DNA of 64,000 bases from Escherichia coli (GTDB lineage Bacteria; Pseudomonadota; Gammaproteobacteria; Enterobacterales; Enterobacteriaceae). This document shows positions 25,969-64,000 of this stretch, one piece after another; position 1 is the first letter of the stretch; each line of letters begins with the position of its first letter. The notes below the pieces were generated by a model. It was given only the letters and a program-made list of their open reading frames with translations. It had not been told where the DNA came from and ran no database searches. The stretch is from the NCBI RefSeq assembly GCF_044324875.1, contig NZ_CP172185.1. One strand, given 5' to 3'. The position numbers and the translations under genes are program-made.

Positions 25969-26319
25969 CCACCACGCGGGGGTAAAACCCCGCGTATTGA
26001 ATTGTGATGGTTTGGTCTCCTGCACCCTTTTTTAATTTATATTGTTTATGTGAATATTATGCCTATGTTTATTATTCATATATATTACGGATGAAAATTA
26101 TTTGATTATTCATAATGTGCAAAATGGCATCTGAATCGATCGCAGTTTGGCATTCGAATCGATCATGATTTGGCATCCATCTCCGATCACAGTTTGGCAT
26201 CACAATCGATCACGATTTGGCATGCTTCCGATCATTGATTGGCATCCTGCCAGTCACTCCGGGAATTAACTCTTTTCACCACAGTCTCCATTGCCGTGTT
26301 TAAACCAGTGGAGACGTCA

Positions 26320-27885
26320 ATGTCCAGAAAGAGAAAATCCAGGAGCACTATGGAAACCTGTTTTAAGATCCTTCAGCTCAAGTTCGACAAGAAGCTGACT
26401 AACCGTTGTATCGGACTGACGTTACACATCAGCGCCTCAACCGTTTTTGAGGTTCTTGCCCGCTTCAAAGCCTCTTCTCTGTCATGGCCATTACCTGCTG
26501 ATATATCCCATGACACGCTGGAGAAACTCATTTTTCCGCCCAAAGACACCTTTGCATCAGAGCTTGTAATGCCTGACATGTTGTACTTCGATACGGAAAT
26601 GAGAAAACCAGGTGTGACGCGGCAACTGTTGTGGATGGAATACAAGGCACAGGCGGGTAACAAAGCGATGGGATACTCGCACTTCTGCCGTTGCTACCGG
26701 GAGTGGAAAAAAACGCGACGTCTCTCCATGCGCCAGGAGCATCGTGCCGGCGAAAAGCTTTTTATCGACTTCTGTGGTCCTACGGTTCCTGTTATTAATC
26801 CGGACACCGGTGAGATACGCCGCGTGGCAATCTTCGTGGCCGTAATGGGGGCGTCCAACTATACCTACGTTGAAGCGTGCGAAGGTCAGGACATGATGTC
26901 ATGGTTAAATGCCCACAGCCGTTGCCTGACCTTCCTGGGCGGCGTACCGAAGCTGCTCATCCCCGATAACCTCAGAAGCGCAGTGAAAAAGGCCGATCGA
27001 TATGAGCCTGTCATCAACGACAGTTATCAGGCACTGGCTGAGCACTATGGCACGGTTATCATCCCGGCCCGACCACGCAAACCTAAAGATAAACCAAAAG
27101 CAGAAAACGGCGTCCTCATCGTTGAACGATGGCTTCTTGCCCGCATCCGTAATGAAACCTTCCACACGCTCAGGGCGCTGAATGCGCGCCTTAGGGAGTT
27201 ACTGACAGACATGAATAACCGGCCAATGAAGGGGTACGGCAATCAAACCCGTGCAGAACGCTTCCGCATACTGGATGCGCCAGCACTCTCTCCGCTGCCT
27301 CTGGCACCTTATGAATACACGGAATACAAAGCTGTGAAGGTTGGCCCTGACTACCACGTTGAATATGCCCGTCACTGGTACTCCGTTCCACACGAACTGG
27401 TCGGTCAGCGTCTGTCACTGAAGGCGGGGCAGTCGGTGGTACAGCTCTGGCACAAGGGGCAGTGTGTGGCGCAACATCCGCGCAGCACACATGAATATAA
27501 ACACACAACCAATCCGCTTCACATGCCAGAGCGCCACCGGCAGCACGGGACATGGACACCGGAACGCCTGATCGAGCAGGGAAAACGTACGGGCCCGTCC
27601 ACAGGCCGGGTGGTTGAATCCATGCTGAAGGCAAAACCCCATCCGGAACTGGCTTATCGTGCAGTTCTGGGGCTGCTGGCACTTCAGAAAAAATACGGCC
27701 CGGAACGGCTGGAAAAGGCCTGTTACGTTGCCCTGCACTATAACGCCCCTGACAGACGCTTTATCGACAATCTGCTGCGTCACCATCGGGAGAACCTGGA
27801 GCTTCCATTATCCCGCCAGGGCGAACAACATCCGGCATATGCTTCAGAGCATGAAAACCTGCGTGGTCCGGGCTACTACCACTGA
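26320..27885 (+). CDS. istA: IS21-family transposase IstA
   Basis: ORF 26239..27885; start set at ATG 26320 (MSRKRK..); N-terminal HTH region and DDE-type core. Confidence 0.85.
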   Translation: MSRKRKSRSTMETCFKILQLKFDKKLTNRCIGLTLHISASTVFEVLARFKASSLSWPLPADISHDTLEKLIFPPKDTFASELVMPDMLYFDTEMRKPGVTRQLLWMEYKAQAGNKAMGYSHFCRCYREWKKTRRLSMRQEHRAGEKLFIDFCGPTVPVINPDTGEIRRVAIFVAVMGASNYTYVEACEGQDMMSWLNAHSRCLTFLGGVPKLLIPDNLRSAVKKADRYEPVINDSYQALAEHYGTVIIPARPRKPKDKPKAENGVLIVERWLLARIRNETFHTLRALNARLRELLTDMNNRPMKGYGNQTRAERFRILDAPALSPLPLAPYEYTEYKAVKVGPDYHVEYARHWYSVPHELVGQRLSLKAGQSVVQLWHKGQCVAQHPRSTHEYKHTTNPLHMPERHRQHGTWTPERLIEQGKRTGPSTGRVVESMLKAKPHPELAYRAVLGLLALQKKYGPERLEKACYVALHYNAPDRRFIDNLLRHHRENLELPLSRQGEQHPAYASEHENLRGPGYYH

Positions 27886-27901
27886 CAGAAGGAACAACAG
27901 T

Positions 27902-28657
27902 ATGAGTGATAACCTGTTAAACAAACTGACCCAACTGAAACTCCCGGCGATGGCCGGGAGCCTGATACGGCAGCGGGAAACGCCTCAGACCTACGACGAA
28001 CTGTCGTTCGAGGAAAGGCTGACGCTGCTGGTTGATGACGAGCTTCTGAGCAGGGAAAACAGCCGTGTGGCACGGTTGAGAAAAAATGCCGGCCTGAAAT
28101 ACCAGGCAACACCGGAAGGGCTGCGCTATCCGGCCTCAAGAGGTCTGCGGGCTGAACAGATGAGAGAACTGCTGAACGGCCACTACATAACCCACAGGAA
28201 AAACCTGCTGATAACCGGTCCGACAGGATGTGGCAAGAGCTGGATAGCCAATGCGCTGGGCGAACAGGCATGTCGACAGAAACACAGCGTCCGGTACTGT
28301 AGAACCGGGCGATTACTGGAACAACTGGCTCAGGGACGTGTTGATGGCAGCTGGCTGAAATATCTGAAACAGTTGCAAAAAATACAGGTTCTAATCCTGG
28401 ACGATCTGGGGCTGGAACAGTTAAGTAACGCCCAGTGTAATGACCTTCTGGAGCTCATAGAGGATCGTTACGGACAAAGCAGCACGATAGTGGTAAGCCA
28501 GTTCCCGGTAGATAAATGGCATGGTCTGATGGAGAACCCAACAACAGCAGATGCCATCCTGGACAGACTGGTACATAACTCACACCGAGTGGTCCTTCAG
28601 GGAGAGTCACTGAGGAAAAATCCCCCGGTAGTGGAAAGCAGCGAAAAAACGCGTTAA
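27902..28657 (+). CDS. istB: IS21-family ATP-binding helper protein IstB
   Basis: ORF 27659..28657; start set at ATG 27902 (MSDNLLNKLTQL); Walker A GPTGCGKS, Walker B ILDDLG. Confidence 0.88.
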   Translation: MSDNLLNKLTQLKLPAMAGSLIRQRETPQTYDELSFEERLTLLVDDELLSRENSRVARLRKNAGLKYQATPEGLRYPASRGLRAEQMRELLNGHYITHRKNLLITGPTGCGKSWIANALGEQACRQKHSVRYCRTGRLLEQLAQGRVDGSWLKYLKQLQKIQVLILDDLGLEQLSNAQCNDLLELIEDRYGQSSTIVVSQFPVDKWHGLMENPTTADAILDRLVHNSHRVVLQGESLRKNPPVVESSEKTR

Positions 28658-57400: not shown

Positions 57401-59479
57401 TTAAATCAATGCCGATTTATCAATTCCCAGTCGCTTCATCCGTGACAGCAGAGTCGTGCGTTTCAGCCCCAGACGTTGCGCAGCGCCTTTAGGCCCGGCA
57501 ACCACGCCGTTGGTTTCTTTCAGCACGCGAACAATCAACTGATATTCATCTTCGCCCTCCTGGGCGACAACCGTTGCGGCAGGCGGCGTTTCAGGCTCCG
57601 GTAAAGCAATATCAGGCAATGACAGCTGCAGCACGTTGCCGCGTGTTAGCAATACCGCGCGCTCAATGACGTTTTCCAGTTCGCGTACGTTACCCGGCCA
57701 CTCCATGTTGCTCAAGGTGCGCAGCGTCTCGGCAGGAATGCTGTCGATATTGCGCCCCAGACGACGGGCAATTTTGAAGGTAAAGGCTTTCGCCAGCAGC
57801 GGAATATCTTCCGGACGCTCGCGTAGTGGCGGCAGGTGAATCGGGAATACGTTCAGGCGGTAATAGAGATCGCTACGGAACTCACGGTCGGCGACCATTT
57901 TTTTCAGATCGCGGTTAGTTGCGGCGATTAGACGCACGTCCGTCTGAATGATTTTGTTGCTGCCGAGACGTTCAAACTCCTGTTCCTGTAATACACGCAG
58001 CAACTTCGGCTGTAACTCCAGTGGCATATCGCCCACTTCGTCGAGGAACAGGGAGCTTTTATCCGCCAGTTCAAAACGACCGATACGCTGGGCGCTGGCA
58101 CCGGTAAAAGCCCCACGCTCATGACCAAACAGATCGCTCTCCAGCAATCCGGCAGGCATCGCCGCGCAGTTCATTTTGACCATGCGGCGATTATTACGCC
58201 CACTGAGATTATGGATAGCACGGGCAATCAGCTCTTTACCCGTGCCAGTTTCACCGAGGATCAGCACGGTACTGTCACTTTGCGCCACCATTTCAACTTG
58301 TTTAAGCACGCTGTACATGGCTTCGCTGCGGCCAATAATCTCGCCAAATTCACTATCAACATTGTTGAGCTGCTCGGTCAGGGCGAGGTTTTCATCAACC
58401 AGCCGTTCTTTCAGACGATGGATTTCCTGATAGGCGAGGGCGTTATCGACAGCGATTGCCACACGTTCGGCAATCTGGCGCAGTAAATTCAGATTGGTAG
58501 TGGTAAACACTTTCTCTTCGCATTGCGCCAGTTTCAGCACGCCCAGCATGGTGTCGCCAGACATCAGCGGTAACAGGCACAAGGTTTGAATCTGGTTGCC
58601 CCAGGTGTCGAACAACATGCGTTCATAGGGGGCTAAATCGTCCCGCTCGTGGAGATTAATCAGCAGCATCTCTTTGCTTTTGAACACGCGTTCGGTGAGG
58701 GTTCCGGCTTCATCGACTTCGCTCTGTTCGTGGGCGGGATGCTGTTTATCAAGATAGTGAGTGGAGTAGATGTTGAGTTTGTTTTTACGGTGGCTGCGTA
58801 AGACGATGCTGATATCGTCAATGTCGAAGTAGTAATGGATTTCTTTGGCGACTTCGCTGACCAGTTCGTCCATATCCAGGCGGGAAAGCACCGCGTTGGT
58901 AATGGCAACCAGGATGCGGAAGTTATCGCGCTCCCGGCATAACAACTCATAGTCGACATTATTGACGACGCGGCTCTGGATTTGTTCGGTGACGACAGAA
59001 ACGATCTGCGTAAATGTTTGCAGACGATTGAACTCTTTTTCGCTCCAGGGGCGATCGTCATAACGAATAAATTCACAGCCACCAAAAATATGCCCTTCCG
59101 CCGCCAGTGGCATCAGGCAATAGTGACCAAATTTGGGGTATAGCCCACCTGCGGCCAGCTGCGGCCAGGTTTCACAAAATTCTTCGTAACTGCAATGCAG
59201 CGTATCAGGGCGCGACAAAATGCTGCGTACCGGACCGTGTGCCAGAACAGTTTCGTCTTCATATTTAATGGGGGTGTCTTTTTCACGCGATGCGTAATAA
59301 GACGCACGTTGAGTCTGCGCTTGCCACAACACAATAGCCGCGTTGTCGGCGAGCGCAGAACGCTTTACCAGTTGCGAAAGAGCCTCACACAGCGAGGCCA
59401 GATCGGGCTGCTGCAATAGTGTCCGAGTGATGTCGAACAACCCTTGTTGTCCGAGATCACTCATCGGTGTATATGACAT
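57401..59479 (-). CDS. fhlA: Formate hydrogenlyase transcriptional activator FhlA (sigma54-dependent)
   Basis: ORF 57401..59515; start set at MSYTPMSDL (692 aa); GAF domains, AAA+ sigma54-interaction domain (GETGTGKE, GAFTGA), C-terminal HTH. Confidence 0.95.
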   Translation of the reverse strand: MSYTPMSDLGQQGLFDITRTLLQQPDLASLCEALSQLVKRSALADNAAIVLWQAQTQRASYYASREKDTPIKYEDETVLAHGPVRSILSRPDTLHCSYEEFCETWPQLAAGGLYPKFGHYCLMPLAAEGHIFGGCEFIRYDDRPWSEKEFNRLQTFTQIVSVVTEQIQSRVVNNVDYELLCRERDNFRILVAITNAVLSRLDMDELVSEVAKEIHYYFDIDDISIVLRSHRKNKLNIYSTHYLDKQHPAHEQSEVDEAGTLTERVFKSKEMLLINLHERDDLAPYERMLFDTWGNQIQTLCLLPLMSGDTMLGVLKLAQCEEKVFTTTNLNLLRQIAERVAIAVDNALAYQEIHRLKERLVDENLALTEQLNNVDSEFGEIIGRSEAMYSVLKQVEMVAQSDSTVLILGETGTGKELIARAIHNLSGRNNRRMVKMNCAAMPAGLLESDLFGHERGAFTGASAQRIGRFELADKSSLFLDEVGDMPLELQPKLLRVLQEQEFERLGSNKIIQTDVRLIAATNRDLKKMVADREFRSDLYYRLNVFPIHLPPLRERPEDIPLLAKAFTFKIARRLGRNIDSIPAETLRTLSNMEWPGNVRELENVIERAVLLTRGNVLQLSLPDIALPEPETPPAATVVAQEGEDEYQLIVRVLKETNGVVAGPKGAAQRLGLKRTTLLSRMKRLGIDKSALI

Positions 59480-61953: not shown

Positions 61954-62816
61954 CGCTGTGTCTCCAGCCAGTTCAGCCACTGGTCCATCCCTTCGCCGCT
62001 GGTGGCGGAAATAAGGATGATTTCAATTTCTGGATTGACTTCGCGGGCGCAGGCGATGCACTTCTCAACGTCAAAGTTGAGATACGGCAGCAGGTCAACT
62101 TTGTTGAGCAGCATCAGCGAGGCGGCGGCAAACATATGGGGATATTTCAGCGGTTTGTCTTCACCTTCGGTAACGGAAAGCACCGCCACTTTGTGTTTTT
62201 CACCGAGATCGAAGCTCGCCGGGCAAACGAGATTGCCGACGTTTTCGATAAACAAAATACCGTTATCGTCCAGTGGCAGGCGCGGTGCGGCGTCGGCAAT
62301 CATCTGTGCGTCAAGATGGCAGCCTTTACCGGTGTTCACCTGAATCGCTGGTGTGCCGGTAGCGCGAATGCGTGCGGCATCGTTCACGGTTTGCTGGTCG
62401 CCTTCAATAACTGCGCACGGAACGCTGTCTTTCAGGCGCATTAAAGTTTCCGTCAGCAGGGTGGTTTTACCGGAACCAGGGCTGGAAACCAGGTTGAGCA
62501 CCAGTTGCTTGCGGGCAGCAAAGCGCGCGCGGTTGCGTTCAGCCAGACGGTTATTTTTGTCCAGCACGTCAATTTCGACTTCCAGCATCCGACGCTGGCT
62601 CATGCCCGGCGAGTGAGTGCCCGCTTCGCCATGACCGTAATGCAGGTCGCCTTCTTCAGTCTGGCTGGGGGTAAATTCAGGCGCTTTAATGCCGGTGATT
62701 TTCATCTTCGGGCGTGCCGCCGGGGCAAATGGCGCGCTACGAAACGCGGAATGAGGGTTATGTTCATCACCCTCGATATACAGGTTGCCTTCACCGCAAC
62801 CGCATGTTGTACACAT
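61944..62816 (-). CDS. hypB: Hydrogenase nickel-incorporation GTPase HypB
   Basis: 290 aa; N-terminal Cys/His metal site, G-domain GSGKTT. Confidence 0.95.
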
Positions 62817-62819
62817 CGC

Positions 62820-63170
62820 TCACTCCTGGTCTATTTCTATCCGCCGAATCTGTAAACCGTCGTCTGCCACAATCTGTAGCATGTCACCATGACACTGTGG
62901 ACAGCGGCGGACGCGTTGGGTCAGTAGCGTCACATACTGTTGGCATGTTTCACACCAGCATTCGGCCTCTTGTTCTTCGAGGTGCAGTTTACAACCTTCC
63001 GCCACGCTGCCGCGGCAAACCAGATCAAAACAAAAGGCAAGAGAGCTGGTTTCGACACAAGAAAATGCGCCAATTTTGAGCCAGACCCCAGTTACGCGTT
63101 TTGCGCCGTGTTTTGCGGCCTGCTGTTCGATCAATTCCAGTGCCCGTTGGCAGAGGGTTATTTCGTGCAT
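62820..63170 (-). CDS. hypA: Hydrogenase nickel-incorporation protein HypA
   Basis: ORF 62820..63182; start set at MHEITLCQ (116 aa); CxxC..CxxC zinc site. Confidence 0.92.
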   Translation of the reverse strand: MHEITLCQRALELIEQQAAKHGAKRVTGVWLKIGAFSCVETSSLAFCFDLVCRGSVAEGCKLHLEEQEAECWCETCQQYVTLLTQRVRRCPQCHGDMLQIVADDGLQIRRIEIDQE

Positions 63171-63200
63171 ATCGCCTCCCATTAACTATTGCCAGCTACA

Positions 63201-63216
63201 AGCAATAATTGTGCCA
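63201..63216 (-). promoter_or_regulatory. sigma54 promoter (TGGCAC-N5-TTGCT on minus strand) upstream of hypA
   Basis: Reverse complement of AGCAATAATTGTGCCA reads TGGCACAATTATTGCT, a perfect -24/-12 consensus. Confidence 0.65.
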
Positions 63217-63329
63217 GTGTTGATTATCCCTGCGGTGAATAATGTCGATGATGTCGAAATGACACGTCGACACGGCGACGAAATTCATCTTTAGCTTAAA
63301 AATCGCTTTAATAACAACAAATTAAAAGT

Positions 63330-63345
63330 TGGCACAGAAAATGCT
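63330..63345 (+). promoter_or_regulatory. sigma54-type promoter (TGGCAC-N5-ATGCT) upstream of hycA
   Basis: TGGCACAGAAAATGCT read directly about 37 bp upstream of the hycA ATG. Confidence 0.55.
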
Positions 63346-63381
63346 TAAAGCTGGCATCTCTGTTAAACGGGTAACCTGACA

Positions 63382-63843
63382 ATGACTATTTGGGAAATAA
63401 GCGAGAAAGCCGATTACATCGCACAGCGGCATCGTCGCCTACAGGACCAGTGGCACATCTACTGCAATTCGCTGGTTCAGGGGATCACGTTATCGAAAGC
63501 GCGCCTGCATCACGCCATGAGCTGCGCGCCGGACAAAGAACTCTGTTTCGTCCTTTTTGAACATTTTCGTATTTACGTCACCCTGGCGGATGGCTTTAAC
63601 AGCCACACCATCGAGTATTACGTCGAAACAAAAGATGGTGAAGACAAACAGCGGATTGCGCAGGCGCAACTGAGCATTGACGGCATGATTGATGGCAAGG
63701 TCAACATCCGCGATCGCGAACAGGTTCTGGAACACTATCTCGAAAAAATCGCTGGCGTTTACGACAGCTTATACACCGCCATTGAAAACAATGTGCCGGT
63801 GAATTTAAGCCAACTGGTAAAGGGACAAAGCCCGGCAGCATGA
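63382..63843 (+). CDS. hycA: Formate hydrogenlyase regulatory protein HycA
   Basis: 153 aa; divergent from hypA. Confidence 0.93.
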   Translation: MTIWEISEKADYIAQRHRRLQDQWHIYCNSLVQGITLSKARLHHAMSCAPDKELCFVLFEHFRIYVTLADGFNSHTIEYYVETKDGEDKQRIAQAQLSIDGMIDGKVNIRDREQVLEHYLEKIAGVYDSLYTAIENNVPVNLSQLVKGQSPAA

Positions 63844-63967
63844 GCTGAGGCTTTGCCCGTTTTGCAGGCGTTACGCCTGTTTGGGGATGGGCGTGTCGAT
63901 GAGTGTCGAAAATGACATTTCATCGGCATGTTTTCGTCAAAAATGACAATCACCTGAGGAATGCCTG

Positions 63968-64000
63968 GTGAATCGTTTTGTAATTGCTGACTCCACGCTC
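63968..64000 (+). CDS. hycB: Formate hydrogenlyase subunit HycB, 3'-truncated by window edge (GTG start)
   Basis: GTG 63968 seven nt after AGGA; translation VNRFVIADSTL.. matches the HycB N-terminus as I recall it. Confidence 0.55.
   Translation, partial: MNRFVIADSTL

Follow-up and report, generated by a model that had tools for sequence, protein, structure and literature searches.

How is transcription directed into the hyc and hyp operons from the short spacer between them in Escherichia coli, and does one set of repeats in that spacer serve both operons? The original prediction, made on the stretch of DNA analysed here (64,000 nucleotides, hereafter the window), described back-to-back sigma-54 promoters in the hypA-hycA intergenic region, separated by GTCGA-rich repeats that could be upstream activating sites for FhlA, and proposed that FhlA activates both operons. 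We identified the genes with NCBIfam equivalog models. The last 6.6 kb of the window consist of fhlA, hypE, hypD, hypC, hypB and hypA on the minus strand, followed by hycA and the first bases of hycB on the plus strand (Table 1). The NCBIfam matches thus bore out hypA and hycA as the flanking genes and the presence of FhlA in the window. The spacer between the two genes covers positions 63171-63381 (211 bp) and has the same length in K-12 MG1655. The original prediction had its right edge in the correct place, but its left edge, set at 63183, followed an over-extended open reading frame; hypA starts at 63170 (MHEITLCQ...), which gives a full-length HypA match.

The 1.2 kb around the spacer show 99.7% identity to their best matches and are held by 5425 of 5426 complete E. 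coli genomes, where they are annotated hypB-hypA / hycA-hycB. Within the 211-bp spacer, the window differs from K-12 MG1655 at three single bases (63305 G/T, 63318 C/T and 63337 G/A). Two of them are located in the A/T-rich region of a putative IHF site, the third falls among the non-consensus spacer bases of the hyc promoter, and no defining base is affected. The region is almost certainly the known E. coli control region that separates the divergent hyc and hyp operons, with sigma-54 promoters activated by FhlA. As this control region is already known, the original prediction is a correct rediscovery, and it shows that sequence alone can suffice for a first-stage reader to spot a genuine sigma-54 control region. 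In response to formate, the region switches on the synthesis of hydrogenase 3 (hyc), the hydrogenase maturation proteins (hyp) and FhlA, its own activator, and in this way it determines how enterobacteria produce hydrogen by fermentation and relieve acid stress. It is also a frequent engineering target. The motifs described below, their rarity, their conservation and their spacing are observations made here.

Table 1. Positions of the genes and of the observed or predicted control elements at the hyp-hyc locus, numbered from the first base of the window
Feature	Position	Strand	Sequence or identity	Remarks
fhlA	57401..59479	-	last gene of the hyp operon; sigma-54 enhancer-binding activator, 692 aa, contains GAFTGA	NCBIfam NF011958, 1548.6 bits (cut-off 830), full length
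hypA	62820..63170	-	first gene of hypABCDE-fhlA	NCBIfam NF002979, 242 bits, full length (1-116)
P_hyp, hyp sigma-54 promoter	63201..63217	-	CTGGCACAATTATTGCT	-24 GG 63215-63214; -12 GC 63203-63202; predicted start ~63190
UAS1, predicted FhlA enhancer, conserved core	63243..63270		TGTCGA-TGA-TGTCGAAATGACA-CGTCGA	FhlA matrix and conservation
Distal part of the repeats	63271..63288		CACGGCGACGAAATTCAT	with 63265-63270 forms the dyad CGTCG-N6-CGACG; lineage-restricted
A/T-rich tract and IHF-like core	63297..63324 (core 63312-63324)	+	TAACAACAAATTA (core)	between UAS1 and P_hyc; predicted from sequence
P_hyc, hyc sigma-54 promoter	63329..63345	+	TTGGCACAGAAAATGCT	-24 GG 63331-63332; -12 GC 63343-63344; predicted start ~63356
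hycA	63382..63843	+	formate hydrogenlyase regulator, first gene of the hyc operon	NCBIfam NF007567, 301 bits (cut-off 180), full length
UAS2, predicted second FhlA-type cluster	63893..63948		GTGTCGA-TGA-GTGTCGAAAATGACA ... TTTCGTCAAAAATGACA (also given as GTGTCGATGAGTGTCGAAAATGACA ... TTTCGTCAAAAATGACA)	FhlA matrix and conservation
hycB start codon	63968	+	GTG	only the first bases of hycB are inside the window

The two promoters are readily recognizable. The predicted TGGCAC-N5-TTGCT on the minus strand facing hypA (TGGCACAATTATTGCT, 63216..63201) and TGGCAC-N5-ATGCT on the plus strand facing hycA (TGGCACAGAAAATGCT, 63330..63345) are both found as described. TGGCAC-N5-WTGCT has exactly two matches in the 64 kb, for 0.08 expected, and no set of two was obtained in 100 shuffles; both matches fall within the 211-bp spacer, each facing the correct gene. 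P_hyp is a perfect TGGCAC-N5-TTGCW, and P_hyc has ATGCT in place of TTGCW, with GG and GC 10 bp apart. Their predicted starts would leave leaders of 20 nt before the hypA ATG (63170) and 26 nt before the hycA ATG. Scanning the window with a published RpoN weight matrix, built from 186 promoters, returned P_hyp and P_hyc as the two best matches (scores of 18.65 and 15.27, respectively).

Could one or both of these -24/-12 matches be fortuitous rather than working promoters? The score of P_hyc falls inside the spread of best chance matches obtained with shuffled sequence (14.5 +/- 1.6), and a motif of similar score occurs inside hycA. Since the matrix score alone lies in the chance range, P_hyc draws its support from its position, its orientation, its conservation and published ChIP-seq data. 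To assess conservation, we collected 80 orthologous loci through a HycA search, from Escherichia, Salmonella, Citrobacter, Enterobacter, Klebsiella, Kluyvera, Raoultella, Lelliottia, Kosakonia and others. All 80 have both promoters: in every locus, the 260 bp before hycA contain a single GC-N8-TGCCA (hyp) and a single TGGCA-N8-GC (hyc). Given also the number and placement of the exact matches, and the ChIP-seq occupancy and EcoCyc-confirmed status of both promoters, a chance origin is vanishingly improbable, and the ChIP-seq data effectively refute it.

The motif inside hycA (TGGCACATCTACTGCA, 63451-63466, plus strand), the third-best RpoN match (14.97), was rejected as a promoter. It encodes a conserved W-H-I-Y-C stretch; its -12 GC lies in the Cys codon, which varies among the orthologs (TGT in 15 of 80, otherwise TGC), and no sigma-54 ChIP-seq site is listed there. 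It is thus probably a by-product of the coding sequence. The segment around it (63448-63475) also carries GCTGG at the same offset as in P_hyp and P_hyc.

We noted that the two promoters resemble each other beyond their defining elements. Segments 63190-63216 and 63330-63356 form a 27-nt inverted repeat with 78% complementarity. Both promoters share TGGCACA-N5-TGCTT-NN-AGCTGGCA, a likeness that extends past the -12 element to about -1; its downstream part is not conserved beyond Escherichia and some Citrobacter. Scans for sigma-70 promoters and terminators gave nothing above shuffle expectation, the single 'terminator' called being the CGTCG-N6-CGACG dyad within the repeat cluster. An Rfam scan of 62700-64000 returned only a meaningless miRNA match (E = 0.95).

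Sigma-54 occupancy, the confirmed status of the promoters, their FhlA dependence and the FhlA matrix and consensus used below are taken from the literature. In K-12, Bonocora et al. (2015) mapped sigma-54 by ChIP-seq and listed a hypA site (OS28, CTGGCACAATTATTGCT, FAT 201) and a hycA site (OS27, TTGGCACAAAAAATGCT, FAT 91), the occupancy of both being very high. EcoCyc marks each of them as experimentally confirmed, and the starts predicted for them lie 20 and 26 nt ahead of the respective genes. Starts at 63190 and 63356 reproduce these distances exactly; the predicted ChIP-seq starts thus agree with the -24/-12 elements of the original prediction. The OS28 motif is identical to that of the window, and the OS27 motif differs from its counterpart by one spacer base. 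More generally, the window shares with the divergent hycA-hypA promoters of K-12 (Lutz et al. 1990; OS27/OS28) the locus, the genes, the 211-bp spacer, the -24 and -12 hexamers, the core of the upstream activating sequence and the predicted starts. In vitro selection with the sigma-54 holoenzyme also recovers the hycA/hypA spacer.

Similarly, ChIP-chip and microarray expression data for Salmonella Typhimurium (Samuels et al. 2013) describe an orthologous divergent pair, TGGCATGGAAAATGCT and TGGCATAAATATTGCT, which was assigned to FhlA with reference to the 'divergent NtrA-dependent promoters' of Lutz et al. 1990. The Salmonella -24 element is TGGCAT rather than TGGCAC as in the window, and the spacer sequences also differ. 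The Salmonella locus of our set (L009) retains three features of the window, namely the core of the UAS, the IHF-like site and a UAS-to-promoter distance of 71 bp. Published descriptions have FhlA activating fdhF, hyc and hyp, and IHF is listed as an activator of the hyc and hyp genes. The published assignment of the hyc and hyp promoters to FhlA supports the proposal that FhlA activates both operons.

We then turned to the repeats. The string quoted in the original prediction, TGTCGATGATGTCGAAATGACACGTCGACACGGCGACGAAATTCAT, is present at 63243-63288 and contains four GTCGA/TCGAC starts in 46 bp (63244, 63253, 63266 and 63277), 9-13 bp apart. This is the only cluster with four such starts in the 64-kb window (Poisson P about 2.5e-6). 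The FhlA sites of fdhF, hydN-hypF, hyc and hyp are upstream activating sequences of the formate regulon (Schlensog 1994 and Leonhartsberger 2000, as cited by later papers), and we used the FhlA consensus and the matrix of 13 sites as quoted from Leonhartsberger et al. 2000 in papers that cite it. The UAS1 segment at 63243-63256 is the second-best match to this matrix in the 64 kb (15.33), a score that is partly circular, as the matrix was partly built from these E. coli hyc and hyp sites. The two best matches in the window are found in the two spacers that flank hycA. The centre of the UAS1 core (~63256) is at about -100 from the predicted hyc start, 63356, and about -65 from the hyp start. 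As in the other upstream activating sequences of the formate regulon, TGTC/GACA-type units occur in the window approximately one helical turn apart, some 100 bp ahead of a sigma-54 start and separated from it by an IHF-like site. Repeats related to UAS1 are also present upstream of the sigma-54 promoters of fdhF and hydN in K-12.

Alternatively, the GTCGA/TGACA repeats might bind a regulator other than FhlA, or result from compositional chance and merely resemble FhlA sites. The 16-bp palindromic FhlA consensus CATTTCGTACGAAATG has no match with up to three mismatches anywhere in the window, and an equally high matrix score (15.30) was obtained at 27009 within an IS21 transposase gene, which indicates that single matches can be due to chance. 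We regard the match in the transposase gene (27009-27022) as fortuitous, since no more than 292 of 5426 complete E. coli genomes contain that gene; the IS21-family element that carries it (istA transposase) is located at about 26239-28657. As for the palindrome, it is an idealisation and was given no weight as a criterion for FhlA sites, and the similarity of the UAS sites to 'the consensus' is loose. The match to CATTTCGTACGAAATG is poor. The E. coli dyads have an internal spacing of 5 bp (UAS1) or 6 bp (UAS2), which varies among genera. Against this alternative, the density of the cluster is unique in the window, the cluster has been maintained across genera in spite of the divergence of the flanking spacer, the same module is duplicated beside hycB, related repeats precede the K-12 fdhF and hydN sigma-54 promoters, and the secondary literature attributes FhlA sites to these operons. 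Repeats unrelated to FhlA therefore appear very unlikely, and we consider UAS1 as a probable FhlA enhancer.

Not all of the repeat string is equally conserved. We aligned the spacers of 12 genera, out of 80 related species fetched, and also produced an alignment of 81 sequences. Conserved islands stand out in an otherwise diverged spacer, namely the two promoters, ATGTCGAyG..TGwCGAAATGACAyGTC (63242-63268) and an A/T-rich stretch that ends in an IHF-type core. The columns of the UAS1 core are invariant or nearly so in both alignments. Conservation of the distal part of the repeats, in contrast, does not extend beyond Escherichia, Salmonella and Citrobacter; Pseudescherichia and its relatives lack this part but keep both promoters. 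The GTCGA cluster is of the published FhlA enhancer type, and conservation across genera supports this reading for the core and not for positions 63271-63288.

The original prediction had both promoters and the repeats in its layout of the region and missed a putative IHF site. The core of that site, TAACAACAAATTA, is the sole match to WATCAANNNNTTR with at most one mismatch in 63150-63400, and it has one mismatch; the majority consensus of the 12 genera at this place is a perfect AATCAATAAATTA. The block TAATAACAACAAATTAAAAGTTGGCA (63307-63334) before hycA is nearly repeated before the sigma-54 promoter of K-12 hydN as AAATAACAGTAAATTAAAAACTGGCA, at about positions 183-157 on the minus strand of the hydN upstream sequence (L083). 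Common to the two blocks is an IHF-like core that directly abuts the -24 element.

The distances between these elements fall into discrete classes. In the 80 loci, all from Enterobacteriaceae species, the two -24 elements are separated by 93, 103-104 or 113-117 bp only, the window having 115 bp. From the UAS1 core to the hyc -24 element there are 49, 60-63 or 71-72 bp, and from the hyp -24 element to the UAS1 core 43-45 or 53-56 bp. Klebsiella, Kluyvera and Raoultella have approximately 10 bp more on the hyp side, which adds a TGTCGA-like unit, and approximately 10 bp fewer on the hyc side. The insertions and deletions on either side of the enhancer core are of about 10-11 bp, or about 22 bp in one lineage. 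Such steps of approximately one helical turn would fit face-of-helix constraints that link the enhancer to both promoters, although with about four independent insertion or deletion events this is suggestive only.

A second cluster of the FhlA type, UAS2, lies in the hycA-hycB spacer. The original prediction had proposed a single intergenic set of FhlA sites; the core of that set was found and this additional cluster had been missed. UAS2 holds the best match to the FhlA matrix in the window (63904-63917, 16.44 out of a maximum of 16.55) and a further match of 12.08, scores that again come from a matrix partly derived from E. coli hyc and hyp sites. Its first half corresponds to the UAS1 module, i.e. 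TGTCGA, three to four bases, then TGTCGAAA(A)TGACA. The blocks of UAS2 are invariant across the 12 aligned genera, and they are better conserved than UAS1: TTTCGTCAAAAATGAC is exact in 76 of the 80 loci, and 75 of the 80 contain the first UAS2 module. The cluster is upstream of the hyp start by ~730 bp and downstream of the hyc start by ~570 bp, and 19 bp separate its end from the start codon of hycB. The RpoN matrix scan detected no sigma-54 motif between UAS2 and hycB, and therefore UAS2 must act at a distance. Our literature search yielded no usable account of the hycA-hycB site or of FhlA binding across the genome. Just past the hycA stop codon and upstream of UAS2, a hairpin (CAGGCG-TTA-CGCCTG, followed by TTTGGGG; 63865-63886) is found in a segment that only Escherichia, Salmonella and Citrobacter possess in the alignment; the scan did not call it a terminator.

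The presence of two clusters raises the question of which one feeds P_hyp. The geometry of P_hyc is canonical, with the enhancer centred at about -100 and the bend site in between. On the other side, UAS1 begins 26 bp from the TGGCA pentamer of hyp and no IHF-like site intervenes, an arrangement that is awkward for looping. Together with the stronger conservation of UAS2 and its necessary action at a distance, these features suggest a division of labour in which UAS1 would be the enhancer of P_hyc only and P_hyp would be activated from UAS2, in which case the picture of one repeat set for both promoters would be half right. Work of the Bock laboratory (Hopper in 1994, Leonhartsberger in 2000) is said to have assigned the hycA-hycB site to hyp. 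The spacing data point the other way: in the genera devoid of the inserted unit, the hyp -24 element and the first TGTCGA stay 26-28 bp apart, and where this distance changes, it does so by approximately one helical turn, which suggests that UAS1 is constrained relative to P_hyp too. On balance, we give the strict division of labour slightly less than an even chance. In one engineered strain, an fdhF gene fused to hycB took the place of hycA, and hyc was weakly expressed from 'what remains of the native promoter'. This hint, which does not amount to a controlled test, is compatible with a role for UAS2.

Combining these elements, we propose the following model, which corresponds to the standard enhancer mechanism of sigma-54 promoters and in which the looping geometry and the allocation of enhancers to promoters are what we infer. 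Sigma-54 RNA polymerase would sit in closed complexes on the divergent P_hyp (63217..63201, minus strand) and P_hyc (63329..63345, plus strand). Formate-activated FhlA would bind the TGTCGA/TGACA cluster, with its core at 63243-63270, on one face of the DNA, and IHF would bend the A/T-rich DNA at ~63297-63324, such that FhlA meets the polymerase at P_hyc, ~100 bp away. ATP hydrolysis by FhlA would then open the promoter. P_hyp likewise depends on FhlA according to the literature, and it would be fed by UAS1, by UAS2 from ~730 bp upstream, or by both. As fhlA is located downstream in the hyp operon, this regulation would include positive autoregulation.

It is conceivable, albeit rather unlikely, that both promoters, the FhlA enhancer and the IHF bend form one stereospecific complex. 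The distances between the promoters correspond to about 9, 10 or 11 helical turns, and thus a single bound FhlA oligomer, always facing the same side of the helix, might serve both closed complexes, or choose between them. No such phasing rule for the promoters was found in the literature searched. The spacing classes across species and the very strong conservation of the hycA-hycB site are small additions to what is known of this control region, and they could guide promoter engineering.

Finally, we looked for a site for FNR. Nothing better than three mismatches to its consensus, TTGAT-N4-ATCAA, was detected in 62600-63450. A published FNR ChIP-seq summit assigned to hyc (2,848,688 in U00096.2) maps to ~63151, in the 5' coding region of hypA.
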